From the NCBI GenBank assembly GCA_004431415.1, contig QPMI01000692.1, positions 1-64,000 of the forward strand: DNA of 64,000 bases. Direction: 5' to 3'. The stretch is from Cyanophora paradoxa CCMP329 (Eukaryota; Plantae; Glaucophyta). Of this stretch, positions 37,640-64,000 are shown in pieces; positions within the stretch are counted from its first letter, which is position 1, and every line of letters begins with the position of its first letter. The translations under genes and the position numbers were made by a program. The notes beneath the pieces are model-generated. The model had not been told where the DNA came from, searched no databases, and saw only the letters and a program-made list of their open reading frames with translations.

Positions 37640-37841
37640 CGCTCTTCAGCTGCCGGCGCGGTGCTAGCTATGCATGACGCGGGTTCTCGGCGTGGGGCAG
37701 GGGTTAGCACGTGCTGCGCTGTAGAGTAGCTCGGTGAGATGAGGAGATTCCGATGCGGTACTGCTTCAAAGGCCAACGCACTGCCTACTTGTTTTTTTGG
37801 CGGTGTGGGTGTACCCCACGAAGAGGGGGTAGCTCGCAAAG

Positions 37842-39665: not shown

Positions 39666-41135
39666 CCGCCCACTCTGCGCGGTAGTCGCCACGTGCCACT
39701 GTGCTGCAGCTGTATAATTCTTGCGAACGTCCAGTCTAGACCCAGATTCTTCGGTGACGTCGACGTCATGATCATGATAAAGCTCCTATCTAGTTTAACA
39801 AGAGACGCAACGTATACGTATACGTACCCGGTCGTGAATCGTGCACGTGCCCCCGCTCAGCGGCTGCAAACGCGCATGCATATGCATATGCGCACGTGCA
39901 CGCCTGGCGCCAGAGTCGATCGTGAGCTCGGTCGTAGTCAGCCCATAAAATTAAACATACGCAGCGATCAACAGCAATGAAGAGTACGTATACGTATACT
40001 GCATGCAAGCGTGGATTTCCTGAATCGACTCGGCAAGACTGCGTGGCACAAATCCGGGCTCTTTAGATGCCTATGCTATCAAACAATGCTCTCTAAGTGA
40101 TCTCGGTCCCCAGACGGTACAGCTCGAGCTCAGTCACTGCTATGGCCTGCTCTCAGTAGGCGAGGGCGGCGTGCCCAACGTCGACGTCCATGCTATCAAA
40201 CAATGCACTCTAAGTGATCTCGGTCCAGGTTATACGTTCAGCTCAGTCACTGCTATGGACCGCCCTCAGAAGGCCACGGCGGAGTGCCCCAGGGCGAGCC
40301 AGGCGTGGCAGAAGCTGCCGGCGCCCTCCGCCGGCCCGTCCTGCGCGCGGGCGAGGGCCGAGGGGGCGGCGGGTCGGGTCCGGCGCGGGGCGAGGGCGAG
40401 GGCGAGAACCGAGGGGCGGCCGCGGAGGCTTAGACCACTAGCGCGTGGGACGCGCGGCGAGGGCCGCGGGGCGGCCTCGGCCGGTCGGGACAGGGCCAAG
40501 CTTAAGTTATAGGCGCGTGGGTGGGCGTGGGCCAAGGGGGCGGCGGCGGCGGAGGCCTAAATCACTAGAGAGCTCGGAGGCGGCCCGGCCTCGGCGGGTC
40601 GGGTCCGGACAGGGCGCGCACGCGCACCGCGTGGACGGGGGGCTCCTCGAGTCCCGCAAGCGACTCGTGCGCCTCGCCCGCCCCGGCCCCGGCCCCGACC
40701 CACGCCGCCGGCCCTGAGCGACGCTTTCATGGACGGAACTTCTATGAACGGAACGGGCGGAGCCGAGCGGGGCGCGCGCATGCGCACCGGCGGCGTCCGA
40801 ATCGAAGTCGTACAGGGCCGCGGCGGAGTAGGGGACGAGCTCGAGGACCTCGGCGGCCTCGATGGCGAGGACCTGATCGGCAGGCGGGGTCAGTGAGTCA
40901 GCGTTCGGGGTTTACGTCGCCGAGGGCGTGTTCACGTCACGCCAGGGGCACCAAAGCCTGGTGCTTTTACAGCTGAAACATTTAGATTTCCGCGTAGTTT
41001 ATTAACAACTAACGTGGCTAATGCTTCTTTTTCAACAATAATCCTTATCCAGGGCAAAGGATTACGCCAGGTACTAGGCTGTTACTTATTCGCGTTACGC
41101 TGCTAGTTATATAGAGCCGCGCGCGGCCGAGGGCG

Positions 41136-44100
41136 TTAACGCGTTCGCGACCGCGAGCGAACCGGGGTATCGAGCTGCTGCGGCTGCTGCTCTTCCTCCT
41201 CAGCGGGAGGCGGCGCTTGCTCCTCCTCAGCCGGCGGCGCCGGCGCCTGCTCCTCCTCGGCGGGCGGCTGCTGCTGCTCCTCTTCAGCCGGCGGCTGCTG
41301 CTGCTCCTCCTCGGCGGGCGGCTGCCGCTGCTCCTCTTCAGCCGGCGGCTGCTGCTGCTCCTCCTCGGCGGGCGGCTGCTGCTGCTCCTCTTCAGCCGGC
41401 GGCTGCTGCTGCTCCTCCTCGGCGGGCGGCTGCTGCTGCTCCTCTTCAGCCGGCGGCTGCTGCTGCTCCTCCTCGGCGGGCGGCTGCTGCTGCTCCTCTT
41501 CAGCCGGCGGCTGCTGCTGCTCCTCCTCGGCGGGCGGCTGCGGCTGTTCTTCTTCAGCAGGCGGTGCTTGCTCCTCCTCGGCGGGGGGCGGTGCTTGCTC
41601 CTCCTCGGCGGGGGGCGGCGCCTCTTCCTCAGCTGGCGGCTGCATCTGCTCCTCCTCGGCGGGCGGCGCCTGCTCCGCATCCTCACCCGTCCCCTGCAGC
41701 TGCTCCAAACCCGCGGCCATCTTCTCCTGTAGATGGTCCATCGCCCGTTCCTGCAGCTCCTCTTGAATGTTCTCCTTGAGCTCCTCCTTGAGCTGGTCCG
41801 TAATGCTGTCCTTTGCCCCCTTCTGGCCCTGCTTGGCGCCCTTCTTGGCTCCATTCTTGGTGCCCTTCTTGGCTCCCTTCTTGGTGCCCTTCTTCGCTCC
41901 CTTCTTGGCTCCCTTCTTGGCTCCCTTCTTGGCTCCCTTCTTGACGCCCTTCTTGGCTCCCTTCTTGACGCCTTTCTTCATACCCTTCTTGGCTCCCGTC
42001 TTGACGCCCTTCTTCATGCCCTTCTTGACACCCGTCTTGACGCCCTTCTTCATTGCGCGCTTGGCCCCCTTCTTCGCGGCGGCCTTGACCCCCTTCTTCA
42101 CGGCGTGCTTCGCTGCCTTCTTGGCGGCTGCCTGCGGATTGCCGTTGATTAATTACAAGTGCGCGGCGGCCGCAGAGGGGCGCGGGGGGGGCGCAGGGGG
42201 CATGCCTTGCCCGCTTTCTTGGCCGCCTGCGCCACGCACGCACGGGCCGCGTAAATACAAGTCCCGATCGGAGCGGGAAGACTTGAATCTAAATCAAATT
42301 TCTTAATAACGCACCATGCTGGCGGCCTTGCCGCCGGGCGCGGCCATGCTGCCAACGTCCGCGGCCAGCATGGCCCCATTCATGAGGGCGCCCTTCCAGT
42401 CCCCGGCCTGCCCGGGGGCGCCCCGTGTCAAGCTTCAAGGCAACACAGAAGGCATACAGCAAGCTCTAGCCGGTCCGAGCGAGGGGCCCGGGGCATTCAT
42501 GTACAACTCAGCGTCCTGAAGGCATAAAAAAAGCAGAAGGCATAAAAAAACGAAGCTCTAGCCAGGCCGAGGGGGCCCGGGGCACTATTTTTCCGATCCG
42601 GTCGGACCTTGACGGCGTCCGCAAAGTCGAGGGCCGTCTAATTAATCAGCATGCTAGCCTCCTAACCCCACACATATTTTAAGATTAACCTCCTAACCTC
42701 CTAACCATATTCTAAGTTTAATGCCTGGATCCCGGTCGCACCTTGACAGCGTCCTCGAAGTCGAGGGCCGTCTGCGCCGTGTCGCCGACGATGGGCACCT
42801 TGACGTCACGCGGCCCCCCCACGTTCAGCGATGCGACACGGGCACCTTGGCGGCTTATATAATATATAGGCCACTTGTACTAGGAAAAGGGGCCGGGGCC
42901 GGGGCGGGGGGGAAGGGGAGGGGGGTACCTTGGCGGCCGCCTTCGTCGCCGACACGCGGAAATCGTTCGCCTCCCGAAGGAGCCCCTGCCTCACTAAGTT
43001 AACCGAGAAACGTTTCAAGTTACTAAGAACAAACTGATTAAATTGGCTCAAAGACCTACTTGTACTTCTATAGCTAGTAACCCGAATTAACGTAATACTT
43101 CTATACCACATGCACAGGAACCCCTGCGCACGTCGCGCGTACTTAAGCTTCTATATATAGCTAGTAGTTTAACAAACTTGTACTTAAGCTTCTATATATA
43201 GCTAGTAGTTTCAAGAAGTTACTAGCAGGAACTCCTGCGCCCCTCGCGCGGACGGACGCCGATCGATATCGATGTCGGACCCCGCCGCGCCCTAGCCTAG
43301 GCCTCTAGCGCAAGCACGGGGGCCGGGGGGCCGGGGGGTGGGGCGGGAGGGCGGGGGGGGGGGGAGGAGGCGGGGGGGCGGGAGGGCGGGGGGCGGGAGG
43401 GCGGGGGGGGGGAAGGGCGGGAGGGCGGGGGGGCGGGGCGGGAGGGCGGGGGGGGGGGGGGGGGGGGGGCCTCGAGCTCGGAGCACGCATGCACATGCCG
43501 AGCGAGCGGACGCCGATCGCGATCGATCGATATATATTCACCCCCGCCTCGTCCTAGCCTAGCCTCTAGCGCAGGCAAGATCTAGAGGGCCTGGGGGGAG
43601 CGCGCGGACCTTCACGTTGCCAGAGGAGGCCGCGTCGAATCCCTTGTCCGCGAACTTGCGCGTCGCGTCGACCTGTAGATCAAATCAAAAATCGAGCAAG
43701 CGCGGCGCTTCATGAATATCGATATCGTCCTGGGCAGCGGAGGGAACGCGAGCGGTCAGCGTCCTGTGATTACGTTATGCACTCCGTTCGCTAGTTGATG
43801 TTAGATGTTAGATGATGTTAGAAATTCCGGCTCGCGATATGTATAGATCGCGCCCCGTCGCCGGCGCTGGCCCGATCGACGTGCGCGGACCATTTCGGTG
43901 GCGCCCTTGCCCGCGTCGACCATCGCCTTCCCAAGAGATCCCGGCATCTGCAGATGGGATCCCGTCGGTGCCGGCGCCGTCTTCAACGCGCGAGCGGCGG
44001 CGTAGCCACTAGGACTAGGGAGGAGAGGGGGGGGGGGAGGGGGGGGGGGAATCCGCCGAAGTCTGTCTCCCCCTCATTCAAAGAAAGGCAGATACAGGCG

Positions 44101-46204
44101 CTGAGGCTCCGGCGAACCCCCTTTCTACTCGTGAGCTAGGCCCGTCGCCCCGCAAAGAAGTGAACGCGGGCGAAATTAAACTATGCAGCAGCGCCCAGCC
44201 CGGCGACGGCGCGCGCGGCCGCCCCACGCGCGAAATCAGAAACGGCCGCACGTGTTTTCCAACGCCTTTGAGAAGACCGCCCCCGACCTTCAGACTTCCC
44301 GTCATCATGTTAACCTTGGCCATGAGCACGCCCTGTCGTGTACCCCCGCCCGACCGAAGACCTAATGATCAGCGGCCAGCTATTTATAGCGAGGCGAGCG
44401 AGGCTATATTTAGCGACCTTCGCGGCGCCCTTGATGTCGCCTTTGGCGAGGGCTTTCGCCGTGCTCTTGGCCGTGTTGTAGACCGATTTGATTTGCCCGG
44501 TCTGCGGGATCGATATCGTGCTCATGATCAGGTGGATCAGAGTCTGAAGGCTAGGTAGGTGCAGACGGCTGCTTCTGCCATACAGGCCCAGCCGGAGGCC
44601 TAGGTCGCGGCGCGGCGCGGCGCACCGCATGTTTGACTGCGTGCTTCGCCACCGATTTCACGCCCTTGCCCACCGTTTTCACGCCCTTCTGGATGCCCTT
44701 GCCGACCTGCGGGAGCCGTATAGGTAGCTTTAGTATAGCTTTATAGTATAGGCCTCTAGATCTAGATCTGAGCCGCTTGTAATATATCTAGCTTTACAGT
44801 TTAGCTATGTATAGGCCAGTCCTCTCGTATAATAATTACCTTGCTGACGCCCTTGGAGATGCCCTTGACGACCTGCACAAGCCGGGCCGCCCCCGGTTCA
44901 GCGCGGGCTCGAGTCCAGCGGGAGCCCAGTGGCCCCAGGCCTTGGCTTGCTCAAGTTTACCGCTCGCAATAAAATGGCCAGTAGAGGTATAGCTTTCTAG
45001 CATAGGCCTCTTAGCCGCTTATAGTTTAGTTTGGCTTTGTAGTGTAGGCCAGTCCTCTCGTATAATAATTACCTTTCTGACGCCCTTGGAGATGCCCTTG
45101 CCGACCTGCACAAGCCGGGCCGCCCCCGGTTCAGCGCGGGCTCGAGTCCAGCGGGAGCCCAGTGGCCCCAGGCCTTGGCTTGCTCAAGTTTACCGCTCGC
45201 AATAAAATGGCCAGTAGAGGTATAGCTTTCTAGCATAGGCCTCTTAGCCGCTTATAGTTTAGTTTGGCTTTGTAGTGTAGGCCAGTCCTCTCGTATAATA
45301 ATTACCTTTCTGACGCCCTTGGAGATGCCCTTGCCGACCTGCACAAGCCGGGCCGCCCCCGGTTCAGCGCGGGCTCGAGTCCAGCGGGAGCCCAGTGGCC
45401 CCAGGCCTTGGCTTGCTCAAGTTTACCGCTCGCAATAAAATGGCCAGTAGAGGTATAGCTTTCTAGCATAGGCCTCTTAGCCGCTTATAGTTTAGTTTGG
45501 CTTTGTAGTGTAGGCCAGTCCTCTCGTATAATAATTACCTTTCTGACGCCCTTGGAGATGCCCTTGCCGACCTGCGCAAGCCGGGCCGCCCCCGGTTCAG
45601 CGCGGGCTCGAGTTCAGCGGGAGCCCAGTGGCCCCAGGCCTTGGCTTGCTCAAGTTTACCGCTCGCAATAAAATGGCCAGTAGAGGTATAGCTTTCTAGC
45701 ATAGGCCTCTTAGCCGCTTATAGTTTAGTTTGGCTTTGTAGTGTAGGCCAGTCCTCTCGTATAATAATTACCTTGCTGACGCCCTTGGAGATGCCCTTGC
45801 CGACCTGCGCAAGCCGGGCCGCCCCCGGTTCAGCGCGGGCTCGAGTCCAGCGGGAGCCCATGGCCATAGGCCTTAGCTTAGCTAAGCTTAAATGCTCGCA
45901 ATAAAACGGCCGGTCCCCTGGTATAATAATTACCTTGCTAACTCCCTTCTTGATCTGCGGGCGGCGGGACCGTCGGGCTCACATTCAGCAATGCGTTGGA
46001 CCCAAACTGATACTCTTTCAAATAAAAAACGAAATCGAATTCGAACCTTCTTGAAGAGTTTTCTGAGAAATTCCGGTGGCCGGGGGGGGGGGGGGGGGGG
46101 GTCATGATCAGCACTAGTCGTGCACTCACGCACGGCCCGAGGGGGCCGGACGCGCGCGCGGCCGAGGGCGGGGGGGGTACGTCAGGGGCGCACTTGAACA
46201 CCAT
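41136..46204 (-). CDS. Unknown protein: cationic 11-mer K/G repeats, central PT-TG-like hydrophobic segment, KKG repeats, acidic PPAEEEQQQ tail; many microexons
   Basis: Spliced: MVFKKLFKK-IKKGVSK-(VGKGISKGVS/RK)x5-VGKGIQKGVKTVGKGVKSVAKHA...VPIVGDTAQTALDFEDAVK...AGDWKGALMNGAMLAAD...(KKGA)n...(PPAEEEQQQ)n. Confidence 0.7.
44812..45860. repeat. 233-bp tandem array (~4.5 copies); each unit is a 33-nt exon plus a 200-nt intron
   Basis: CCTCTCGTATAATAATTACC recurs at 44821, 45054, 45287, 45520 and 45753. Copies are nearly identical. Confidence 0.95.
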
Positions 46205-47349: not shown

Positions 47350-47849
47350 ACGCAGTACTGCGGTGCAAGCTTGATGCAGTGAAAAGTAGTCCAGGCGGCA
47401 CGGGTACCGTGCGGCGTACGCGGCGCACTGCAGCTGCGAGGAAGCGGAAATCTAGAGGAGACAGCTAGAGAGAAGTGGTTCCATGCAGAACCGCGCAACG
47501 AAGAGCAAGGCGCGTACACGACGCACTGCGAGGAAGCCGAAATCTAGAGGAGACAGCTAGGGAGAACTGGATATCGATCCATCATGGCATGCAGAACCGC
47601 GCAAGGAATTCGAAGACGGGAGTGAGAGAGAAGTTATAGTTTTCCCCTCGAAAACCACTTTTCCCCCTCGACTTTGACGCTCGAAAGTCGAAGGCTGACC
47701 GGTCCACCGAGCCAATCGGAACGCGAATAACGGCTCATTTTTTTCTGTTGTTGCATACTGGACCTCGAAAACGGCCTCCTAGAAAAATTTTGCCTGAAGC
47801 GAGGGAACGGGAAGCAAGGGGGGAAGACCTTCTGTCTTTTTTCCCCCCT
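47350..47849. mobile_element. Partial, diverged, inverted copy of the MITE at 55165-56141 (family A)
   Basis: Reverse-complement similarity to ~55165-55830. Ends in TTCCCCCCT; the other terminus is not seen. Confidence 0.8.
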
Positions 47850-48916: not shown

Positions 48917-49286
48917 TCGCTCGCATGCAGGTAAGCCCCACCAATTGCGCGACCTTCCCACTACCATTCTCAGTAAGCCCATTATCCATTTTCAAATTTC
49001 TCAGTAAGGCTCAGTAACAAACTATAAAATAGCACTGTATTTTTCAGACTTCTAACCTCTCCTTACTGAAACCAATCACGAAACCCTTTCATTCTTTATT
49101 TTTCTAATTCCTTACCATTCCCAGTAAGCCCTTTAACTTTCCCCCGATCTCTCAGTAAGGACAGTAAGACCCTTATTTTTACGAAATGTTCCCGATCGTT
49201 TCCGGACTGTTTTCAGTTAGCCAAATTGAAAAATCCAGGTAAACCCCACCAAATAAACAAGTGATCCCCACTTAAAGATATCCCGA

Positions 49287-49625
49287 ATGTATAATGTAAC
49301 AATGGCAAGCAATCAAGTAAATTTACCTGAGAGTAAGCGGTGCAATGTTTGCGATAAGGTAAAACCGGCATCGAGTTATGCATTGCAAAAGCGTAGCTCA
49401 GGGAATGTACTTTTGAATTGGAGATGCAAAGACTGCGACCGAGAGTATCACAATTACCTTTATCATTGTGTGTTAAAAACGCGTCCGAAGATCGAAGTAC
49501 AATCGAAGATATGCTCGCACTGCAAGATTGAGAAGCTTGCAAGTGAGTTTAATAAAAGACAAAGAACGAAGGATGGTCTCAACTACCAATGCCGAGAGTG
49601 TTATAGCAAAACACGTAAGAGTTAA
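49287..49625 (+). CDS. Viral double zinc-finger protein (CxxC...CxxC x2, HNH-endonuclease N-terminal/Stc1-like fingers)
   Basis: KRCNVCDKVK...WRCKDC and KICSHCKIEKLASEFNK...DGLNYQCREC. Confidence 0.75.
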   Translation: MYNVTMASNQVNLPESKRCNVCDKVKPASSYALQKRSSGNVLLNWRCKDCDREYHNYLYHCVLKTRPKIEVQSKICSHCKIEKLASEFNKRQRTKDGLNYQCRECYSKTRKS

Positions 49626-49851
49626 ACCGAATTTCATTTTATATTTTTTAAAGCAAGTTTGTGCTGCCGAAAATGCCCACCTGCACAAACTTGCGAGACC
49701 AAGGTAAGCCCCACCGACAAAGTACGACGATAGACCACGATTAATCGCAACTGGAACCACTCGCGCCCCGCCCACTATGCAAGATACATGCCTTTCTTAT
49801 GCATGATCTATGAAAAATAACAATAAACCCCTTTCTCATTCTTCGAATTCT

Positions 49852-50115
49852 TTACATAGGAGCACTCACAGGAATTTCGCTTGCCTTTCGAACAGTCCCC
49901 CGATTAAATGCTTGCTCTACAATCGCTTCCTTTGTGAGTGGAATCGGAATTCCAGCGGCAATACACGATTTAACTTCTTTGTCCACAATCTCGTCAGTTG
50001 CTGACATTGCGCGACTTTTCACTACATTAGTAATCCACTCAGCAGGGGAGAACGCAATATATTCCATTGCCGACTTTTCTGTATTCGATAGAATCACCTC
50101 AAATATGTTCGACAT
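49852..50115 (-). CDS. Small phage-like tail-fibre-associated protein
   Basis: LSNTEKSAMEYIAFSPAEWITNVVKSRA...IPLTKEAIVEQAF resembles (from memory) small hypothetical proteins encoded beside tail fibres in aquatic tailed phages. Confidence 0.6.
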   Translation of the reverse strand: MSNIFEVILSNTEKSAMEYIAFSPAEWITNVVKSRAMSATDEIVDKEVKSCIAAGIPIPLTKEAIVEQAFNRGTVRKASEIPVSAPM

Positions 50116-50137
50116 TCTTTATTCTAAGAAAAGAAAA

Positions 50138-51046
50138 TTAATCGATTGCGGTTATCATGGCTATATATAGTCCACATCTGTCTCTCCATGCATTCTGAAC
50201 AAACATTTCGACATAATCGCCCGGGGAAAGCAATATCACACCACCTGTTGTCATACCAGTATATACACTAGCAATTGGTATTCTATATCTGAATTGACTT
50301 ACTAAATTAATATTTATCTTTATTTCCAACATACCTGTGCCTGATGCTACATTTTCTGTTAATGCAGAAGCATGAACAACGTATATTCCTTTTGTTTGAC
50401 AGGTAAAACGACCCTCAGAAAAAGTTGATGTTCCAAGTCTTGTGAAACCAGCTGAATAGTCAACAAATTTTATTTCTGCACTTCCAGTTCCTCCTGTTCC
50501 TGTTCCATATCTTCCCATCATTGGGTGACTATTCATTTTAACATTGCCACTGAATGTGCCTGTGGTTCCAGTAATTCCAGCATTTCCTGAAAGAAGCCCT
50601 GAAAACGTCCCAGTGGTTCCACTTACTCCTCCACTTGCTGTAAGTCCTCCTGTAATAGTCGCACTTGTTGCTGTCACAGCCCCACTAACTGCAAGTCCAG
50701 TCCCGATCCATGCCCCGCCACTGTAAACTTGAAAAGCCGCTGATTTCCTATCAGCCGGATCGAAAGCTGTTTTATAATCCGCTTGACCTTCATATAGATT
50801 ATCTTTGGTGACCAGCCCCGACGATATTGCGGGTCGATTAGATACGATCATTTGAGTAGCTTTAACGATTCCACCAGCCTTGTCGGCTCTGAGTTCTTTG
50901 ACTCTGAGAATGGAAGTCTCATTGAAAGAATCGGTTTTCGCTGTTTCAGTCGAAGGGAATGACTCGTTTAGATCATATACAGTGTGTTGCACGTTATGGA
51001 CAGCACTGGCTGATAAGGAAAACACAGGCGTGAATACTGTCGACAT
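50138..51046 (-). CDS. Fibre protein with C-terminal C1q/TNF-like head
   Basis: G/T-rich shaft (GTTGTFSG x2) then GRFTCQTKGIY...VILLSPGDYVEMFV (C1q-like pattern). Confidence 0.7.
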   Translation of the reverse strand: MSTVFTPVFSLSASAVHNVQHTVYDLNESFPSTETAKTDSFNETSILRVKELRADKAGGIVKATQMIVSNRPAISSGLVTKDNLYEGQADYKTAFDPADRKSAAFQVYSGGAWIGTGLAVSGAVTATSATITGGLTASGGVSGTTGTFSGLLSGNAGITGTTGTFSGNVKMNSHPMMGRYGTGTGGTGSAEIKFVDYSAGFTRLGTSTFSEGRFTCQTKGIYVVHASALTENVASGTGMLEIKININLVSQFRYRIPIASVYTGMTTGGVILLSPGDYVEMFVQNAWRDRCGLYIAMITAID

Positions 51047-51066
51047 CTTTTAATTGCTCTTTATTA

Positions 51067-54000
51067 TTACGTGAGAATATTATTGTTTTGGAGAGGTCCG
51101 ACAGCAATCCAATGGAGTTTAAGGGTGCGATTAGCTGCTGTGACATCTGTGAAATTAGTTGATGCGAAAGTTGTGAATCTTACGATCCAGGTAAACTTAT
51201 TTTTTAAACCCACACGAGTATTATTAACATACTCAGGTCCGATATATACACAGTTGGTCATGTCCCAATTTACAGAGTTGAAGCTATTCTCGATAGAGGT
51301 AGTAATCACTGCATCACTATAAAATGGGGTAGAGAATACGACCGTTCCCGATAACTGAAAGGTTTCTCCTGCTGTGGAATTTCGATTTTCGAGGACTACA
51401 TCCGCTGTCCCTTGTTGCACATATGCATTTGCATTTACATAGCTACCGAAATTCGTGAGCAACTCGATGCTGTGATTGTGAGTAGGTGGCGAAGTAGGTG
51501 TGTTAGTTAAATCGTTATAGTCCCCGCTCGTAGCCACAGCATGCAAGTTTGGTGTATTAATCAGATCATTGTAGTTTCCACTTGTAGCCACAGCATGCAA
51601 TGTCGGTGCAATAGGGGTGTTAGTTAAATCATTGTAGTCACCACTTGTAGTCACAGCATGCAAATTCGGTTTAGTAAATAATCTATCCCATGTTCCATTG
51701 AAAGGGAGTGTAGATTCGGATATAATAACACTTTGATCGATCCAGCGAGGTATGTAAGTGGTGAAATCGGGAATTCTTGCTAAATCATAGTAATCACCTG
51801 TGAATGCTACACTACTCCAAGTAGGCTTCTCAGTAATATCAGTCCATTTACCACTAAATCCCAGCGGAACATCTGTGAGTTCTTTGTAGCTCACCTTTTG
51901 TTTCGGTATCGATAGCTCAATGGGCGAGAATGCACCCGAAAGCTGATTTTCAGAGGTGAAATACATGAGATTTTGACTATTAAGGAAGTCATCAGCGACA
52001 TTAAATTTGGAATTCGTGGGCAATTCGAGTCGACTTATTGGGGTGTTTGGATCTAATACATATTCAGCACCAAGGTGGATAACAGGAAAAGTTTGATCAT
52101 TCGGAGTGTCCACAAAGAAATTAGAAGCATGCACATCACCTGCAACAGTTCCACCTGTTAGTGGTAAATAATCATGATCGTGTGAATCAGGTGGATAGGT
52201 CGATGGGGGATTGACAATATGCTCCCACAAATGCTTGTGAACATTGGGTAATTCAAGTCGACTAAATGGAGTGTTTGGATCTAATACATATTCAGCACCA
52301 AGGTGGACAACAGGGAATGACTGATCATTCGGAGTGTCCACATAGAAATTTGGAGCATGCACATCACCTGTAAGAGTCCCACCTGTAAGAGGTAAATAAT
52401 TCCCAAGAGCCGACGTTAATTCGGTATCTGTAACATAATCTTCAAGAATTGCTGCAAGTTCTGTATCATCTACATAGTTTTTGCTTTCGAGGTAATCATC
52501 TGTTACCACACCTGAAAGGGTTGTATTGTGTAAGTTTTTCGCCGCCATTCTCTGATTGACTTCTAAGGCGCCACCTGTTGTTGTTTTAATCCATGCAATC
52601 TCGCATTTTCCGTGATCATCTGTGGGTTGTCCCACAACAGGAAGATAGTTTACAACTTTCTCCCTTGTGAACACAATCTTAGGTCTTGCTACATCATATG
52701 CGCTTTGATCCGTTACATTTACTTGAATTGCTGCTGAAAAATCCGCTTCTTGTCCTATTTCTCCTGGGTGATAATTCGTAACATAGATACTGGGGAAAGT
52801 ATCATTTACTCCTACATTGAAATCGCCACTATAAACTCCATTTACGATTGGATCCCGTGGTAATCTTACAGCAAGAGTTCCCACCATCGGTGTGCCTGTT
52901 TCACCTGTAAACGACCCATTCAGGTTAACATAATGATCATTCAAAAACAGCCTCTCAGGTGTATTAATGGATTGGTAAAGTGTGACCCCATTAAAAACAT
53001 TTCCGATTGCATTCAATTGCGCAAAAACTGGCTGCTCATCTATTTCCTCCCATGGGTGCCTGTGGTTACTATTGGTAATCTCTGAATAATCATGGGAATG
53101 TTTTCCTGGTGGGAAGGTTGAGGGCGGATTTGTGATATCTTCCCATATATGCTTATGGGCAAAATCTGTTATTTGATCTTTTGTGTGATTATGGGCAAAA
53201 TCTGTAATATCTGCTTTTGTGTGTTTTTGCTTTGCTAACCAATCTAAAACAACATTCGATGTCGGGTGATTTGGTAGGTTTGCTTCAATCTTCACAGTGA
53301 GATAATCGACTATTACATTACTTCCATTAATATTACTTGCCCATAGGTTACTGCTGTAAATGTTACTGGCATAAATATTACTGGCATAAATGTTACTTGT
53401 AACTGTAAGGTTTGATGAAATTGTAAGATTAGATGAAATAACACCACCTTTGAGAGACAGGTAATCATGAGTGTGTGGATCAGGTGGGAAGGTTAATGGT
53501 CGATTGGTGATATGCTCCCACAAATGCTCGTGAGAACTGGGTGGAAACGTTAAAGGGACATCTGTGAGTTCTTTGTAGCTCACCTTCTGCTTTGGTATAG
53601 TGAGTTCAATTGGTGAGAAATCACCCGAAAGGCGATTTTCAGAGGTAAAATACATGAGATTATGGCTGTTAGGTAAATCGCGATCGAGTCTGCAAATCGG
53701 GGTGTTGTCGCCTAATATAAATTCGGCGCCTGTATGCACGACCGGGTTTCTTTGGATATACATATTTGATGCACCTATTACAGGTGCCACAATGGGCACA
53801 TCTGAACATATAAGGTTGCAAGTGATGGAGAAAATGGTTTTAGGGGCGAATAGATTGCAAACAAAGGTCACAGTAGCTGGATCAATAGTAGGATCGACAT
53901 TTGAACAGATCTGAAACATCCACCCTCCCACACAGCTGCAATTTAAATTGCGAAAGGCTGTGCCTGCCATTGCATCCACATAGCCAATCCCATTTGCTAT

Positions 54001-54189
54001 GTCATATATGTGACCAAACTCGTAACCAAAAATGTCATTCCATAGGTTAGAAGCCATAGCTCCCATCACATACCCTTTTAGATCTACTATCAGGTCATTG
54101 GATTCACTGGGTATATTGGCATGGGTTATATAAAATTGATTATCCAAGACAGCATTCTTTATTGTCGTTTCTACTATGGGTTCAGTCAT
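51067..54189 (-). CDS. 1040-aa viral fibre/adhesin with phage tail-fibre repeats
   Basis: HxH...I repeats (HKHIWEDITNPP), YLPLTGGTLTG x2, (V)ATSGDYNDLTNTP x3-4, SN repeats, and a C-terminal GTVVFSTPF lectin/gp53-like domain. Confidence 0.8.
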   Translation of the reverse strand: MTEPIVETTIKNAVLDNQFYITHANIPSESNDLIVDLKGYVMGAMASNLWNDIFGYEFGHIYDIANGIGYVDAMAGTAFRNLNCSCVGGWMFQICSNVDPTIDPATVTFVCNLFAPKTIFSITCNLICSDVPIVAPVIGASNMYIQRNPVVHTGAEFILGDNTPICRLDRDLPNSHNLMYFTSENRLSGDFSPIELTIPKQKVSYKELTDVPLTFPPSSHEHLWEHITNRPLTFPPDPHTHDYLSLKGGVISSNLTISSNLTVTSNIYASNIYASNIYSSNLWASNINGSNVIVDYLTVKIEANLPNHPTSNVVLDWLAKQKHTKADITDFAHNHTKDQITDFAHKHIWEDITNPPSTFPPGKHSHDYSEITNSNHRHPWEEIDEQPVFAQLNAIGNVFNGVTLYQSINTPERLFLNDHYVNLNGSFTGETGTPMVGTLAVRLPRDPIVNGVYSGDFNVGVNDTFPSIYVTNYHPGEIGQEADFSAAIQVNVTDQSAYDVARPKIVFTREKVVNYLPVVGQPTDDHGKCEIAWIKTTTGGALEVNQRMAAKNLHNTTLSGVVTDDYLESKNYVDDTELAAILEDYVTDTELTSALGNYLPLTGGTLTGDVHAPNFYVDTPNDQSFPVVHLGAEYVLDPNTPFSRLELPNVHKHLWEHIVNPPSTYPPDSHDHDYLPLTGGTVAGDVHASNFFVDTPNDQTFPVIHLGAEYVLDPNTPISRLELPTNSKFNVADDFLNSQNLMYFTSENQLSGAFSPIELSIPKQKVSYKELTDVPLGFSGKWTDITEKPTWSSVAFTGDYYDLARIPDFTTYIPRWIDQSVIISESTLPFNGTWDRLFTKPNLHAVTTSGDYNDLTNTPIAPTLHAVATSGNYNDLINTPNLHAVATSGDYNDLTNTPTSPPTHNHSIELLTNFGSYVNANAYVQQGTADVVLENRNSTAGETFQLSGTVVFSTPFYSDAVITTSIENSFNSVNWDMTNCVYIGPEYVNNTRVGLKNKFTWIVRFTTFASTNFTDVTAANRTLKLHWIAVGPLQNNNILT

Positions 54190-54226
54190 TATACTCTATT
54201 ATGGAATACTACAAAAATTAAGGTTG

Positions 54227-57200
54227 TTACATAACGTTTGGAACATGTTCATATATTCTCCCTTCTCGCTGTGCCATTTCCGCCATAAAGTCTCTGTCAT
54301 TATTCATCGTTTGCTCTGCCAATTCTTGTGCTCGTGATTTTTTGGGTGCTGCCCTACTTGCTGGTGGTTGATCAGTTCTCACAACACTAAGACCATGCCC
54401 CTCGGCTGACCTCACCTCTAACCCCACATCTCCTTCGGCTGCTTGGGTCACATTCAGCTCAGGTGTGGAGTATTTATTACCTGCTCCTGCAATGGTTCTG
54501 TCTATGCATGCACAACACAAAGCTCGGAATTTGTATGCAAGCACAAGCCCAAGAGCACCGAGAATCGGCAAGAGAATGATAAGCACTAAATTTCCTGGAT
54601 CCGATCCGGGTGCTCCGACTGGATTGGTAGGATTTGTGGGATTATAAGGTGGTGTGTTTGGATCTGGATTAGTTGTAGGGGGATCTTGTGAATCGGGATC
54701 TGGATCAGGGGTATTCGGATTGGGATCGTTTGGCGGCGGCTCTGTCGACCCTGCTAATGTGGTTGGCGCTGTGTATGCATTCGCAAACACGATGGGAGCC
54801 GTCGCTGGATTTCCTGTGGAGGATCCTGAGATTGCACCATAGGTATCTGCGAGATACTTGTATAATTCCTGTGTCACAGGTGGATTGCTCACAGATCGAC
54901 ACACCCAAATATTGCATGTGGTATCATAGACTGTGTCCCTAATAAAGGGAGGTAGAGCCGTCCCACTGAATGACTCAAAGAATCCATTTCGCGATAGCAA
55001 TCGATGCCCTGCATCACAATTTCCGCCCTCATAATATTTGGTAGCCGAAATCGCACCTTGCACATAAATATTACATGTCGAGTGCAATCCAATGTTATTT
55101 AGGTTAGGAGTATATCTGTCATCGAGACGGACAGTGCACACCCATGGGGAAGCGGTTTTTTGCAAGGGGGGAAAAGAAGACCGAAGGTCTTCCCCCCCTT
55201 GCTTCCCGTTCCCTTGCTTCAGCCAAAATTCTTCTATGAGGCCGTTTTCGAGGCTCAGTTTGCAACGCAGGAAAAAAATGGGCCGAAATTCGCTTGCAGC
55301 GACACGTGTTTGTCGCTGCGGCCGTCCATGCAAAAAAAGGTTTTCGAGGGCGAAGACCAGTTTTCCTTGACTTGAAGCCTGGAAACCAACTTCTCTCTCA
55401 TTCCGATCTTCGAATTCCTTCCGCGATTCTAGCGAAGACCAGTTTTCCTTGACTTGAAGCCTGGAAAGCAACTTCTCTCTCATTCCGGTCTTCGAATTCC
55501 TTCCGCGGTTCTGCATGGAACCAGTTCTCCCTATAGCTAGCTGTCTCCTGTAGATTTCGGCTTCCTCGCAGTGCGTCGCGTAAACCTTGCTCTTCGTTGC
55601 GCGGTTCTGCATGGAACCACTTCTCCCTAGCTGTCTTGCTCGATCTCCTCTAGATTTCCACTTCCTCGCACTGCGCCGCGTACGCCGCACAGAATTACTT
55701 AAAAATTCTCCCTAGCTGTCTTGCTCGATCTCCTCTAGATTTCCACTTCCTCGCAGTGCGCCGCGTACGCCGCACGGTACCCGTGCCGCCTGGACTACTT
55801 TTGACTGCATCAAGCTTGCACCGCAGCACGTGCACCGAAGCACGCGCAGCCCGTGGGCCGGATTGGCCCGTACCGCGTAGCTTAGGCCGTGCAACACAGT
55901 TGATGCGCAGCGTTTCAATCTCAATCTGGCCTTTCATTGAGGCTTTTCTTTATTCGGTTAGATCGCAGCGTCTGCTTATCGGGCCTTTTCTATTCTTTTC
56001 AATCATATGCAAATATAATCTGTTTCTATCTTTACTACTTCAATTGCAACCTGCCGCGCGCGCTGGGCCGGGGTCGATCTAGATCTGCCCCTTGCATGTT
56101 CGTGCCACTACTACTCTTTCATTAGATCCAGATTCCCCCCTTGCACCCCCGGCGCGCCAAAACGCGGCCGGGCCACTAGTATATATTTCTTATCGCCCAC
56201 TTCGATTACATCTGTATTTGGGTGGCTGTCAAGCTGAGTCCAAACTGCATCATATCTGGAAGTGTAATAAACTAACAGACCATCAGTAGAAGATGTGAAA
56301 GCAAAGAAGGTCATAAAGTCCGTGGATCCAAAGAAGTCAGCATTGGTCGATGTTAGGGTGACTCTGGGATAGCTCATGTTGACAGTCTCAGAAGGATATG
56401 GAATATATGAGGTGTAATTGCGATTGAACAGGTAATAGTGAAATCCATCTGAGACATTCGAGTGAGTGGGCAAGGTGACTGTTAAGGTCTTACTGCGATT
56501 TTCAAACGTGTTCTGTATGACAATGTTGCAAGAATTAATATATCGAGAATCGAAAAAGTAATTATTTGTGACTCTATTATCGATCACAGTCGCATTGGTT
56601 CCATTAAACACGAAATTCTGCCCATTGATCCTTGTAGTATATAGGTCGGTCACATCGAGTGGATACTTTATTTTTAATCTATCAGTATCATCATACTGGG
56701 GAGTCTGACCCACAGCTGACCACCCTACTGTGTATGGGGGATATTCAAATTTCGCTGTGGTCGCATTATATGTATAGAAGTAGACACCGACTGGGTAGCC
56801 ATTGATATAAGTATGAATCGTAGGATCGGCTACAAGATTAAAGCCTGTCGTGGTGACATTCTCTGCTCGAAAAACGGTAGTATATTTGGGTGCTGGTGTT
56901 ATGCCTCCTGAGGGCTGGGCGAAATATCGATTGGTATCTACTATGGTAACAGTTGGGGGGGCATTAAATGCCGATGTGAAGGTAAAAGGTATACTAATCG
57001 ACTCTGATGGAGTATATCTATAATAGTAGCCATTTACCATACTTAATAATTCTGAGCTCGGGAATGACCTGCTACCTGTCTGAGTCATAGGGGTAAACGC
57101 TTTGATATTGTGGTATGATATACTGGGTGTCGGGGAGTTTACCAAAGCGACAGCATCTGCGAAATCAGACTTTGTTATATAGAGCTCTTTAAGATATTCT

Positions 57201-58882
57201 CGTTTGAAGGGGTTTGTGGGTTCGCCAATCTGTATATTGGAGGCTGGGAAGGGGACGACATTATTTACCTGTAAATCTCGGTAAACCTTTACTCTGGGTT
57301 TGCTATCGAATTCAGGGGTGATATAATTGATATTCAGAGTGAAACTCAGATTAGCTATGGTGTTCAGTGAGGAGTTCCGGATAATGAGAGTATTTGTTCC
57401 AACATATTGGAACAAAACCTGAAACCCTGTGGAGGTGATATTATGGACATATGCCTTGTTATATTCATCAGTGAAAGTGATTTGATTATAGTAAACTGTA
57501 TGATCGACCAAGGTAACCGTAGGTAAAATCTCGAAACCTGTGACACCCAATTGATCCCAAGTAAATGTGTATGTTGGACTGTCTGCATAAACTACATAAA
57601 CTTCGAGACCTGCGAATTTCTGCGGGTAGCCTGTGACCTGGTAGGTCTCAGTCCGCGAAACCGAGCGGGAAAGGTTACTATTAAAGTCAGTGTAGCTGAT
57701 CAGTGCATTATCACTGGTGAGAATCTGATTGGGTCGGAGTGAGTGATTAAATGGAAGGATTAAATTGGAGGCAAACATGGAAACTCCATGCACCTCTGAC
57801 CATCTCAGATTCGATAAACCAACCCGGTATGTGTTATCAGTCGCGGGGTAAATGTTCCTTTTCGATAGAATATGGGCTAAGGTAATTGCAAGCGTTCCAT
57901 CTGCTGCAAACAGAGCATTAATTTCGGATTGCAAAGCCGCGATTTCAGTAGTGTGGGTCGTGAGGGTTCCATCCTGGCTGGAATCTTTGGTGTTCTTGCT
58001 CCTCTCGAACTCCAAAAACGCCTTTACGATGTCCTTGCCCAAAAGATCGTTTATATTGTCTCTGGTAATGTAAACATGGTCTGTTCTCAGTGCCTGTTTC
58101 TCTGTGGTAAAAGCCGGAATCTCCTCTGCAAATGATATAGTCGTTTTATCAAGTGCTAAGGATCTCACATTCGGAGCATTGGCGCCAATTATATCCACAA
58201 CGTTCCCATTTTCGACAATTTCTAAGGTCGGTTTCGCGGGGTCTAATGTGAAAACACCCTCTGTTATCTGGGGAACCGATTCGCTCTTCTGAATCACAAA
58301 GGATTCGATGTTTAGGTTACAGGTTGCGACATTGGTGGCGAAAAACGACTCGGACTTAAGCGAGTTTACGTTAAGAGTATTTGTAGATATGTTACTTGCT
58401 GTAATATTACTCGTCGTTAGATTACCTGCTGAGAGATCATGGACGACCTCTACCTTTGTTTTCCGCGTGGATACTCCCGCTATAAGTGTGCTATTATCCA
58501 CGATTCTCATAGCTGCATTTTGGAAACCGCTCTCATCTTGAATGAAGAAGTTTAAGCGACCTCTATCGAATGCTTTTGGGATGTTCCTACGATTATATCG
58601 CACCGTTTTCGGTAGCTGGCGGGTTGCCTGAATGCTGGCGACTCTGTTTCGTTCGTTATCATCAAGTAAAAAGTCGATTCCAAGTTTATGATCCCCTTTC
58701 TCGACGTTCATTAACTGCAAAGCTGCGGGTCTGCTCGGTGTCCCACTGACTGGATCTTCGCGGTCTGCATTGAAGTTTATTTTCAGAGACCCGCGAATTT
58801 CAGTGTTTACCTGATCAGTGTCCTCTATCTGAGTGGTCGAATTAATAACTCGTGCATCTGGTCGCGGATTCAGGAACGACAT
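54227..58882 (-). pseudogene. 1224-aa fibre-like protein with C-terminal TM anchor, split by a MITE
   Basis: Removing 55165-56141 plus one TGCA joins ...RFGAPGVQ to KTASPWVC... in frame (3675 nt). Contains IYPATDNTY...RW, FTSAFNAPPTV-type lectin-like domains, a Pro-rich stalk and TM LVLIILLPILGALGLVLAY. Confidence 0.85.
55165..56141. mobile_element. Host MITE (977 bp, family A) inserted at TGCA within a viral gene
   Basis: TGCA|AGGGGGGAA...TTCCCCCCT|TGCA. Internal ~80-bp tandem duplications; homologue at 47350-47849; excision restores the ORF. Confidence 0.93.
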
Positions 58883-58925
58883 CCTCTTTATAAACAAAGA
58901 AGATATATAAGAAGTATATAAGATA

Positions 58926-60419
58926 ATGAAGACCGTTCTCGCTTTGAGTGGAGGGGGGTCGCGCGGAATAATCGAGGCTGCTATAATGGCACAGATTGAA
59001 GCCCAAACCGGTAAACGAATCCAACAGCTATTCGACTGCTTTGCGGGAACATCCACAGGTGGATTAATCGCGCTCCTATTGAATATCAAGGGAACCGATG
59101 GCGCCCCTAAATATACTGCCACTGATATTCTGGCGCTCTACAAAGCGAAACTACCGCTGATTTTCGCGAATCCACGAGTGCTTACATCGATTGTACAGCG
59201 CCCAAAGTACGAAGCAACTAACTTAGAAGCTGTGGCTCTGGAACTCTGCGGCTCAGCGACCATGGCGGATCTCTATAAACCCACCATCGTGACTGCGCTC
59301 GACACGGTCTTAATGTCCCCCGTTTTTATTTCAAGCAACGATGAAGACATAAATGGGATGCTTGTGCGCGATGCTGCAAGGGCTACCTCAGCTGCTCCGA
59401 CCTATTTCGAGCCGAAACAAGTCACAGTCGCCGGAAGAACATACTGTTTAATTGATGGTTGCATGAGTGGAAATAATTCGCCCGGGGTTTGTGGTTACAC
59501 ATTCGCCCGCACTTTATTCGGAAACTCTTGCGAGGAGGAGCTTATAGTGGTCTCGATTACGGCGGGTCATGTCCAAGACTCTGATAAGGCGACATCTGGA
59601 TATTCGTACGACACTATGAAAAATTGGGGGATCGTGCAATGGATGCTAAGCGCCACAGGATCGCCAATTCTCAGCATGTTCTTAGAGTCGAGTGATCTAA
59701 ACGCACACGTAAAGCTACTGAAACTTTTACCCAGAAACGATGATCAGAATTACGATCGCTACTATAAGCTGAGCGTTCCTTTACCGAAAGATAAAATGAC
59801 CCTCGATACTATCACAACGACGCACCTGCAATATTTGGAAACGGAAGCGCTCGCGTTTGTTTCCGCACAGCAAACGTATTTTAATGCGATGTATTCAGTG
59901 CTGACGATGAATATCTCAGAGGGCGACGTTCCCATTATTAATCTGTCCGGGTGCACAGATGTAAGCGCACCCCCGGAATCCAATTGGGTGCCGCTCGATA
60001 AAAGCGCTTTTATTGCGGAATTTGGCACAGCTTCTGATGCCCGCTGGTCAAATGCTACGGGGTGGGTGGGCTTTACCAACCCGCCGCAAGGTAGTAGGTC
60101 GGGAGGCAATTATTTACGCATTGATTTTCCGCGTCTGTTTATGCTTTCCTCTATAAAAATGAAGCCGGCTGCAAATGGAAACTACATTAAAACGTTTGAG
60201 ATCGATTACCAATTAACTCCGGGAGTGTCGGCACTTGTCACATACACAGAAGCCGGCGCGACGAGAGTGTTTACCAATGCAAATCAAATAGCCGGAAGTG
60301 CTGATCCCGACGAACATTTCTAAGCGAACCCGAGATCTATTAGAACCCTCGTAATCTGGGTGCTCTCGACGAACGTAGCTTCGGCATGCCGAATTGATTT
60401 CGAGGGCTACTACGTGTGA
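58926..60419 (+). CDS. Patatin-like phospholipase fused to an F5/8 type C (discoidin) domain; in-frame TAA at 60321
   Basis: LSGGGSRG, AGTSTGG, ATSAAPTYF, LIDG. C-terminal YLRIDF...YIKTFEIDY...FTNAN...HF*ANPRSIRTL...CRIDFEGY ends with TGA 7 bp from the next gene. Confidence 0.88.
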
Positions 60420-60426
60420 ACAGCGC

Positions 60427-61272
60427 TTAATCCGTGATCACTTCGAGCTGGAACGAGAATGAGAGACCGTTTATATCCGCAACAGAGCCCCGCCATTTTC
60501 GAAGCGAAATTGTGAGACGATCTAAATCGAGTTGCGATGTGACATTTACGTAAGGGATGCTTGCGCTCGGTTCGTGGTAAAAGGAATATCTACCAAAGTC
60601 CGAGTTCATCTGAATTCGCAATAGATAGGAGTCGTCGACATTGTTCAGTCTACCTGTAACCGCTGCGAATTTGGTAAAAGGGCGGAGCTCTTCGATATCA
60701 AGGTAAATATATGGAATTGCATTAAAGTCGACCATTTTCGGGCATATAATCGCGTAGCGACTGGGGTAATCTCTGAGTGGAACCGGCACTGGTTCTGGTG
60801 TGCTGGCGTAAACCACTCCGGGTTCTATGCCGAGACAATCACAGAACTCCTGGTCTGAGGACTCTAATGTAAACGGGCTATTCGGAGATGAGAAAACGAA
60901 GCGGTTCGTAGACAGAGCGAGAGAAAAGGAGACCGGGAAGAGACCGAGTGGATTAAAAGAACCGCCCGCAAATCCGAGTATAGCATCACTGTTTAGAGCT
61001 CTCTCTTTCGGATATCGTTCGTTATCAGCATCGACGTAATAATAATCGTTTACGCTGGGAATCGGTGCTATCATTTTGGATGCGGGGATTACTGTGGACT
61101 CTTCGTTTAGAAGCGTTATAGTTATTGTCTGATCGGACGGAACAACATAAGAGCTATTGGGAATCTCAGCTGATAGCACACGAAATCGCCTTACATTATT
61201 AAGGCGCGTTTTCAAGTGCAGCACGCCGTTTTCAAGGTCTCTACTGTCGCAATTTATTGTTATTCTTTTCAT
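60427..61272 (-). CDS. Minor capsid (penton) protein 1
   Basis: ITINCDSRD...LNNVRRFRVLSAEIPNS...YIYLDIEEL...LDRLTISLR...FSFQLEV: PLV/NCLDV single-jelly-roll penton pattern. Confidence 0.8.
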   Translation of the reverse strand: MKRITINCDSRDLENGVLHLKTRLNNVRRFRVLSAEIPNSSYVVPSDQTITITLLNEESTVIPASKMIAPIPSVNDYYYVDADNERYPKERALNSDAILGFAGGSFNPLGLFPVSFSLALSTNRFVFSSPNSPFTLESSDQEFCDCLGIEPGVVYASTPEPVPVPLRDYPSRYAIICPKMVDFNAIPYIYLDIEELRPFTKFAAVTGRLNNVDDSYLLRIQMNSDFGRYSFYHEPSASIPYVNVTSQLDLDRLTISLRKWRGSVADINGLSFSFQLEVITD

Positions 61273-61288
61273 AATCTATTATAGTAAG

Positions 61289-62215
61289 ATGAAAGAATAC
61301 CTGAGCTTTTCGAACGATGATCGCGATGAGGAGTTTACTCAGCCAAACCAGTATGTAGTGACATTACCCCGTCGCTATGACAACGTAAAATCGGTGCGCC
61401 TGGTGCAGGCAACGGTTCCCAATGTTCTTTCGACTGTGACGAACGATATTGATGCCACTGGTGCAACCATCGAGCGCATGGAACTCTATTTCTCGGTCAC
61501 AGCTTCGGATTCCGGATTCGTGACCATCACAATCCCCAAAGGATTTTACACCAAAGACGACCTTGCCGCAAAAGTCACAGAAAGACTCGAAGCAGCTCGC
61601 CTTTCAGATTTCGGTGGAAAATATATTAAATGCCGCTATAATACTACTTCAAAGATCTATGAGTTTTTCAGTGATAGTAACTTTTGGTTCAAGTTCTCCA
61701 AAGCTTCCCCTGAAACACTCAGAAAATCCAGTAATCGCAAAGCAATCGCTAAGAAACTCGCAATATTTGGTTTCAAAGATATTCAGCTATATGTTTACGA
61801 GACATTTACCCCTCTTGCAAGCGATACATTCCTTGTGTTTAATCCTGGGACGGGAACTGTGACACTCAATCGACGCATTCGCGGCTATACTCGTGGAGAT
61901 GAGACCCCGGCGGCGATGATCTGGCTATATATTGACGAATTTGCGCCGTTTATTCGCTCAGTCAACAAGCACGTCGATGGTTATTTCATGCGCATTCCAA
62001 TCCCACAGGAACTCGAACATGGTGATATCTACCACTTCGACACGTCCACTACGGTGCCTCTCATTCGTGAATTCCGCGAATTAAAATAGTTCGACCGCTT
62101 GACGATTAAACTCATCGACCATGATGGCGCTCTCTTAGATTTCGGGGTTTGGGCGCGTTATTTCACTTTTGAAATCGAAACCTACGACGCACCGCCCGAA
62201 ATGAATTTCTACTAA
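61289..62215 (+). CDS. Minor capsid (penton) protein 2; in-frame TAG at 62087
   Basis: NDDRD...PNQYVVTLPRRYDNVKSVRLVQATVPN...ITIPKGFYT...IWLYIDEF. After the TAG it continues FDRLTIKLIDHDG...FTFEIE, matching the penton-1 C-terminus. Confidence 0.82.
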
Positions 62216-62262
62216 GCCCTTTAAATTATTTTCTGATCCCAAAGATAAGAGAAGAAACGCTC

Positions 62263-63576
62263 ATGGAGACTAACAGCCAATTCCAGCGCCCAACGCTGAA
62301 ATCTATGCTCACCACCGATGACTACAAGGATTATTTCCTAAACAAGTCGCTGGTCATTGGAACGTCCTCTGGCACTAAGCCACTTCGAGTTCTGGTCGCC
62401 CCCGATACCGAACCAACCAATGCCCTCGGTAACCGAGTAGTTTTCAAAATCCCCCTCTACCATTTCCTGAATGGTCTCGCGCTGCAACTCGACCTTAACC
62501 CGATCACCCTCACTGATCTCACGAATGGTATCGCTGGAACTACTGGCTACCTTCGCGTCATTGGATCGCTAATTAAGCGCATTGAAATCTCTCACGCTTC
62601 ATTCCGCTATGTTGTCCCAGAAGATTTCGTCACCCAGTATTTTCTACTGATGACTGAACAGGGCGAACTCGATAAGAAACTTCGCTATGTGGGTGGTCTT
62701 GTCGGAACCGCTGGTAACACTGTCGGTGGAACCTACGAAATCGATTTACCCTCTCCTTTCGAGAAGGCGATGTTCCCACTTTGCGCTCTGAACTCTGAGA
62801 TCACAGTAGAAATCGAATTCAAGGCGCAAGGGGATGGTATTATTGAGGACACGAACAATGTTGCTAATATTGCGGTAACCAACAATGGCGCTTCCCTTCA
62901 AGTGCTGAAACCCCGCGTTATTTGCAAGGTCGTAAATGCCGATTAGGCGGTTGTATCTGAGACCATTGCCCGTGTTAAATCGACTGGCATCGCGATCCCC
63001 TACAACGAAATCGGTTTCCTACACACAGATTTCCAGCCGACCGCCTCCGGTTCGCGAGTCAATCTCTCGCAACTCACAGGTGCGGGTCTCATCCACACTC
63101 TCGTATTCTCTGTGCGCCAAAACGCGAAGACGAAGGTGAACAACGGAACTCTCTCGGTTCTGGCTCCTCGTGCACTCAGAACCAACGCTGTAAGCTTCTA
63201 TGTAGAACTCAACAATAACCGCCTTTACTCGAATACTTCGCTTCCTCTCATGATTGCCGCGACCGAACTTCAAGAGAAATATAATTCGGCGATCTTTACC
63301 GAGAGCACAAGCTACCCCGCTCTCACTGGCATTTATTTCGGTGCTGGAAACGGAAAAGCGTCGCTTCTCAACCAAGAGAATACGGGCTACATCGATGCCA
63401 CAGGCACATCGGCGTTCGATCTGGTCTTCGAATTCAACGGTGTCACAACGGCAGCCGAAGGTTCATCAGAATGGTATGCGGGTGCCGCTTATCAGAAGAT
63501 GCAAATTCAGTGCATTGCCCTCGCTCATAACATAATGATAATCACAGGCGACGGTATCCGAAGAGTATCCGCATGA
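62263..63576 (+). CDS. Double-jelly-roll major capsid protein (437 codons); in-frame TAG at 62944
   Basis: ORFs 62263-62946 and 63112-63576 share a frame with a single TAG between them. VVFKIP, LIKRIEI, FPLCALNSEITVEIEF and C-terminal IALAHNIMIITGDG are typical of PLV MCPs. Confidence 0.85.
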
Positions 63577-63621
63577 TTACCACATTCAGTCTTATTTTTC
63601 TATTGTTTTTATAGTGAAAGA

Positions 63622-64000
63622 ATGCAAAAAGGGACGACGCCCATGGATCTCGAGGAATGGAACCCGAAACAGAGGGTGAAACTTCCCGCACGATTTCTCC
63701 TTTTGGCGAAAACCAATTGTGGTAAATCGGTATTCTTAAAGTGGCTGATCAAAGAACTCGAAGACCAGATCTCGTATGTTCTGGTTTTCTAGCCTACGAG
63801 TTTCAACGGTTTCTGGGGACAAATTACAGATGAAGTGCATGATACCTGGAAACCGGAATATGTGGAGTCGATCATAGAAGCCCGCAAAAAAGCCATCATC
63901 GCGGGTAAGAAACCAAAGAATATTCTCATTGTGCTCGACGATTGTTTGGAGTCCGGAACTATCGATCTTTCGCGCGATCATTTGCTAAATAAATTGATGG
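63622..64000 (+). CDS. A32/FtsK-HerA family genome-packaging ATPase (3'-truncated); in-frame TAG at 63790
   Basis: Manual translation: RFLLLAKTNCGKSVF (Walker A)...YVLVF*PTS...KNILIVLDDC (Walker B). Missed by the ORF track. Confidence 0.88.

Follow-up and report, generated by a model that had tools for sequence, protein, structure and literature searches.

Results

Four successive plus-strand genes of an integrated virus each carry one in-frame stop

Why should four successive genes of an integrated virus, all on one strand, each be interrupted by a single stop codon? The question is raised by the right end of a 64,000-nucleotide stretch of Cyanophora paradoxa CCMP329 DNA (contig QPMI01000692.1; hereafter the window), which holds the left part of an endogenous Polinton-like virus (PLV). 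The original prediction offered three explanations: strand-asymmetric C-to-T hypermutation by a host defence, programmed read-through or RNA editing acting as a latency switch, and ordinary decay or consensus error. Our analysis indicated that the stops are probably independent nonsense mutations, private to one decaying copy of the virus. The genes and their stops are as follows.

58926 to 60419, plus strand: patatin-like phospholipase gene with a C-terminal domain, read through one TAA (Pfam PF01734, E = 1.1e-20; gap sizes)
60321 to 60323, plus strand: in-frame TAA of the patatin gene, codon 466 of 497, 31 codons ahead of the TGA (outside the 40 sister-copy differences described below)
61289 to 62215, plus strand: penton-like gene 2 with one TAG (paralogue alignment; weak DUF5901 match, E = 0.027)
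62087 to 62089, plus strand: in-frame TAG of penton 2, codon 267 of 308 (Ser codon in sister copies; a single G:C-to-T:A difference)
62263 to 63576, plus strand: major capsid protein gene, probably of the double jelly-roll type, with one TAG (paralogue and distant relatives)
62944 to 62946, plus strand: in-frame TAG of the capsid gene, codon 228 of 437 (Glu codon in sister copies; a single G:C-to-T:A difference)
63622 to 64000, plus strand: A32-type packaging ATPase gene with one TAG, truncated by the window end (Pfam PF04665, E = 2.7e-4; paralogue P0002, E = 9e-11)
63790 to 63792, plus strand: in-frame TAG of the ATPase gene, codon 57 of at least 126 (Cys in paralogue P0002; outside the 40 differences)

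As originally described, all four stops are present, one per gene and without any frameshift, and TAG ends no intact viral gene. It had also been held that the expected domain continues in frame past every stop, and for three of the four genes this was borne out by homology. Penton 2 aligned with its minus-strand paralogue, penton 1, for 30 residues beyond the stop (E = 4e-7); the capsid protein aligned past its stop with paralogue P0001 (60% over 433 columns) and also with three more distant relatives; and the ATPase aligned past its stop with P0002 (76% over 119). For the patatin gene the indication is indirect and comes from gene packing only. When the stops are read through, the eight gaps between genes from 50115 rightwards measure 7–47 bp (the leftmost gap is 226 bp), and ending the genes at their internal stops would give gaps of 103, 173, and 675 bp. 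The C-terminal domain of the patatin protein is putatively a discoidin by its motif, as in the original prediction, but no discoidin was detected by Pfam or by a sequence search of solved structures (one match, E = 0.15).

With six matches among 1.84 billion representatives and none in Pfam, the capsid proteins form a small, divergent family. P0001 obtained a feature score of 0.98 with Capsid_N/Capsid_NCLDV clusters, in which the family is found on 10–18% of members, below the tool's recognition threshold. A structure model of this paralogue had low confidence (pLDDT 37.6); the D13, Sputnik, Melbournevirus, and iridovirus capsids ranked first, none at E ≤ 0.001. Capsid relatives were found in neither viral contigs nor metagenome contigs, and a search with the ATPase paralogue returned one confirmed stretch and no loci.

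Sister copies carry sense codons at the two visible stop sites

Among 24 listed sequencing runs, 17 contain 53–57% of the sampled words of positions 58900–64000, which implies a divergence of ~1.8–2.0%, or roughly 90–100 sites. Sister copies were compared in the contigs of four runs, X1, X2, X6, and X19 (346, 252, 553, and 5 pieces, respectively); the first three are deep runs of the same organism. No RNA run was listed among those containing the sequence; X19 may be one, but its five low-depth contigs cover none of the stop sites and carry no information about expression. Unless called whole-table, the counts of differences below rest on the 40 best-supported of 273 variable places; nine of these 40 are not fixed in every run. 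The many overlapping variants suggest a multi-copy family.

Comparison with other copies, which had been proposed as the way to the ancestral codons, gave an answer at two of the four sites. At 62088, the penton-2 stop, a Ser codon occupies all contig depth of X1, X2, and X6 (1, 1, and 2 contigs), and at 62944, the capsid stop, a Glu codon does so (2, 4, and 6 contigs). The stop letters occurred in no contig of the three deep runs; contigs drop rare variants, so this absence is not proof of absence from the organism. The capsid residue is also Glu in P0001, and E, D, P, and E in four relatives. At the ATPase site, previously thought to be a Ser position, P0002 has Cys, which fits a small residue, and the stop would then derive from a Ser codon.

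The 40 differences comprise 23 synonymous changes, 15 missense sites (in 13 codons), and 2 nonsense changes. C>T and G>A changes number eight each, and changes towards A/T exceed those towards G/C (23 versus 10, P = 0.035, with the direction assumed to run from sister to window copy). Both visible stops belong to the G:C-to-T:A class, which accounts for 7 of the 40 differences in total. A tight cluster of eight changes lies within 62406–62430 and a second cluster within 61435–61453, where run X19 has the window's own letters; both are mostly synonymous and suggest recombination tracts between copies. Being clustered and mostly synonymous, the differences mark the window copy as a genuine haplotype that has diverged, as opposed to noise.

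A second, more distant family of the same virus was also seen in X1, X2, and X6, with contig joints at depths of 244–263, 22–43, and 415–425, respectively, well under those of the main family. P0001 (60%) and P0002 (76%), for each of which the longest contig is 3,816 nt, may belong to it.

Read-through, editing, recoding, and hypermutation do not fit the two visible stops

A programmed switch on virion genes, whether by read-through, adenosine-to-inosine (A-to-I) editing, or recoding of TAR (TAA or TAG) codons, would be in keeping with late genes that each have a single stop, usually TAG, in an element where no intact gene ends in TAG. At the sites where it could be tested, programmed read-through was rejected, given that the sister copies have Ser and Glu codons at both visible sites and do not share the stops. 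The 3′ contexts of the four stops are all different, and the downstream folds (z of −0.64, −0.08, 0.32, and −2.18) include a stable hairpin at one stop, the single structural point in favour of a switch. A-to-I correction of premature stops was likewise rejected: homologues have Ser, Glu, and Cys at the three sites where one is available, the residues there being Ser, Glu, and Cys/Ser and never Trp or Gln. Full TAR recoding had already been called unlikely and proved so, with 4 TAR versus 117 CAR (CAA or CAG) codons among 4,395 viral codons, and with TAA terminating 7 of the 10 open reading frames (ORFs) listed. ARAGORN found no tRNA gene in the window, and a narrow literature search pairing Polinton-like virus with stop codon readthrough gave no match. 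One host ORF contains 51 CAR codons and terminates in TAA, which weakly supports the standard code in the host.

Hypermutation of the C-to-T type, by a deaminase or a defence resembling repeat-induced point mutation (RIP), was proposed to have turned CAR into TAR on the plus strand, and three TAG plus one TAA on one strand are what it would leave. It was rejected at the two visible sites, where the stop arose from neither a Gln codon nor a C-to-T change, and C>T equals G>A among the differences. Whole-table T/C versus A/G counts (40:29, 45:36, and 43:35) gave no strand bias (P = 0.23–0.43). TpA is under-represented in the viral parts (0.78–0.89), and CpG shows no depletion across the block of stop genes (1.30), so there is no dinucleotide bias of the expected kind. 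The patatin stop at 60321 could be of the C-to-T class. At the two visible sites, a G:C-to-T:A transversion replaced a different residue in each case, so that C-to-T hypermutation is excluded there, as are amber recoding and editing to Trp. Private stops amid a mixed, strand-symmetric spectrum, the outcome named in advance as fatal to hypermutation and to programmed use, are what was found at two of the four sites.

The minus strand also appears to be damaged

The minus-strand viral genes had been counted as free of stops, which would make that strand look undamaged. The features concerned are listed here.

60427 to 61272, minus strand: penton-like gene 1, uninterrupted (6 missense and 6 synonymous changes, together 12 of the 40 differences)
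54227 to 58882, minus strand: large fibre-like gene, apparently a single gene broken by an insert (924-codon ORF plus a start-less 303-codon tail)
55142 to 56173, strand not given: insert of ~1.03 kb, partly host repeat, boundaries approximate (between two CAC triplets)
51067 to 54189, minus strand: open fibre-like ORF of 1040 codons that contains internal repeats
50138 to 51046, minus strand: 302-codon ORF, open, with a weak C1q-like end (Pfam, E = 0.036)

The largest minus-strand gene appears to be split by a host insertion. Part of the insert (55165–55829) matches, in inverted orientation, host DNA 8 kb away at 47355–47849 (E down to 1e-60). The flanking CAC triplets lie 1,035 bp apart and may be a 3-bp target duplication, and the insert contains internal repeats of 82–100 bp. 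The 924-codon ORF terminates with TAG TAG within the insert; the piece beyond it has its first Met at residue 278 of 303, and both halves share the same frame. No homologue of the start-less tail that might confirm the split was found among 2,854 candidates. An undamaged minus strand was thus not confirmed. As damage independent of the stops, the insertion supports decay, and with 12 of the 40 differences in penton 1, half of them missense, the minus strand was not spared change.

The four stop genes make up 31–34% of the nonsense opportunity of the 11 viral ORFs, and the probability that all four stops fall within them is 0.009–0.014 under four strand-symmetric spectra, in what is a post hoc test. 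Within the block 58926–64000, with minus-strand penton 1 included, the contrast between strands vanishes (P = 0.50–0.54). Strand and position effects cannot be told apart. Three general spectra predict 0.04–0.06 nonsense changes per missense change, so that if 30–40 missense changes are ascribed to decay, four or more stops have a probability of 0.04–0.2.

The viral element and its surroundings

The host part of the window has mostly 55–77% GC per kb, in keeping with a 67%-GC eukaryote, and the GC content falls from ~0.7 to 0.35–0.48 at ~48950, from where closely packed, intronless ORFs continue to the window end.

48950 to 64000, continuing beyond the window end: endogenous PLV, left ~15 kb (GC fall and packed intronless ORFs)

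PLVs are 14–40 kb long and bounded by terminal inverted repeats; the virus occupies at least 15 kb here, and its left end is the one inside the window. Repeated CAGTAAG words at 48930–49200 mark that end and are probably a terminal repeat with its partner beyond the window. Of the features by which a PLV is recognized, a double jelly-roll major capsid protein is indicated by weak, concordant evidence, and an A32-type packaging ATPase by PF04665. Candidates for a penton (minor capsid protein) are the two paralogues, one with the weak DUF5901 match; their penton label, which follows the original prediction, is putative. The two are divergent and lie head to head at 60427–62215 with 16 bp between their starts, and one report describes two penton genes in some PLVs (10.64898/2026.06.19.733378). 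No integrase or replication gene was found among 11 ORFs scanned with Pfam, in an element that extends past the window end. A 112-codon plus-strand viral ORF (49287–49625) has two CxxC-type pairs, repeated, a weak Stc1 match (E = 2.3e-4), and no internal stop.

In the host part, segments duplicated with divergence pair 28400–30300 with 38300–39700 and 20567–21364 with 37785–38676, and include part of a WD40-repeat gene. A tandem array at 44850–45850 has a unit of about 160 bp, judged by eye, and a 338-codon minus-strand ORF (41136–42152) encodes KKG(A/V/M) repeats followed by AEEEQQQPP repeats.

Discussion

The four stops are, in our judgement, probably independent nonsense mutations, each private to this integrated copy. 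The sister-copy codons and the balanced spectrum favour decay or consensus error, the third of the explanations originally offered. We envisage that the window copy descended from a functional haplotype, as most differences are synonymous, that purifying selection was lost after integration, and that drift towards A/T followed. Full-length capsid protein, penton 2, and packaging ATPase could then no longer be produced from the decayed copy itself. Clustering of the stops on the plus strand would reflect position and chance, or possibly a more decayed tract imported by recombination between copies.

Several observations weigh against this reading. The other 3,027 viral codons contain no stop (P about 0.01), and if only 10–20 missense changes are due to decay, four stops become improbable (P = 0.001–0.03); decay thus does not account for a mildly raised number of nonsense relative to missense changes. 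The 40 visible differences were picked by the tool from 273, and the nine that vary between runs are among them; sister-copy letters could be read at two of the four sites, those at 60321 and 63790 lying outside the visible differences. Finally, no read or contig with a stop allele was seen, and the presence of the stops in the organism is therefore unproven.

That last point bears on the main rival, which we consider unlikely: the stops would be false-consensus errors from assembling or polishing a multi-copy element, and the real locus would be open. It agrees with the absence of the stop letter from contigs of all three deep runs at both visible sites, and with the finding that the share of sampled words does not exceed 57% in any of the 20 runs listed as containing them. 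Precedents exist as well, for stops of protist viral elements have vanished after strict polishing (PMC10120064), and Sanger sequencing did not confirm the fragmented core genes of mavirus-like elements in Cafeteria burkhardae (PMC8547959). However, false consensus in PMC10120064 brought frameshifts along with substitutions, whereas 4,395 viral codons here have none, so a noisy consensus seems less likely. Most differences found in the window alone are synonymous, and X19 contains one cluster of them. Had sister copies guided the polishing, one would expect private letters to be lost rather than made, and random error would share the nonsense-excess problem of decay.

This excess leaves room for selection on knock-outs or for a burst of G:C-to-T:A damage. 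Real stops favoured by host selection, such that copies with knocked-out virion genes persist and a half capsid protein possibly interferes with assembly by active copies, seem improbable to us. One stop in each of four genes is mildly unexpected (P = 0.05–0.07 given four), and three of the four fall in the morphogenetic module, amid differences that are mostly synonymous, with none seen in the fibre-like ORFs; yet a single stop would suffice, penton 1 is open, and there is no evidence that the window copy is expressed. Less probable still is the full version, in which the host kept a copy with its virion module knocked out gene by gene and its fibre-like genes free of nonsense, the half capsid protein being a dominant-negative inhibitor of active sister copies. 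That protein is predicted to end after the first jelly roll, by the domain boundary presumed for the family and with a poor paralogue model. If true, the full version would be virus-derived immunity against a Polinton-like virus. A local burst of oxidative G:C-to-T:A damage in the stop tract, in the cell or during library preparation, is very improbable. The class to which both visible sites belong, and to which the ATPase site would also belong, provides 21–32% of single-step routes to TAG (three of three, P = 0.009–0.03), and its nonsense share of 9%, compared with 3–4%, corresponds to two to three times the average stop yield; nevertheless, the class supplies few of the differences, and whole-table counts in X1 (28 versus 23 in reverse) are nearly even. 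A programmed switch is highly improbable, and C-to-T hypermutation the most improbable of all. Where sister-copy letters could be read, at two sites, these more exciting readings are refuted, and at the remaining two nothing supports them.

As ordinary decay, the locus adds one more case to the question of whether endogenous viruses of protists are intact or pseudogenised, which the cited papers leave open because of unreliable assemblies. If confirmed by reads, a copy that has four nonsense changes and a host insertion but lacks any frameshift would serve as a clean case of genuine decay. The locus reveals no new code, editing system, or host defence.

In-frame TAG codons in late or stage-specific genes are familiar from amber recoding of late genes in phages, A-to-I correction of premature stops in fungi, and RIP. 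Depending on the system, a conserved stop, one residue per codon, a C-to-T spectrum, or homologues with Trp would be required, and the PLV of the window differs in lacking these features at the sites where they could be tested. Closer parallels are found in protists. The mavirus-like elements of C. burkhardae are virophages, and their tested stops, accompanied by indels, were not confirmed, whereas the window PLV is without frameshifts; they resemble it in being multi-copy, in having fragmented ATPase, penton, or capsid ORFs in assemblies, and in carrying inserted host mobile DNA (PMC8547959). In this connection, a further report suggests transposon insertion as a trigger of pseudogenisation (10.64898/2026.07.28.741278). 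Endogenous protist PLVs (PMC10120064 and PMC12220804, the latter of which defines the capsid-penton-ATPase module and describes patatin–discoidin fusions in PLVs of rhizarians and glaucophytes) differ in that the capsid of the window is divergent, with no Pfam match, and its right end lies beyond the window. They share with it an AT-rich insert in a GC-rich host, the module of capsid, penton, and A32 ATPase, fibre-like genes, many non-identical variants per organism, and premature stops in assemblies.

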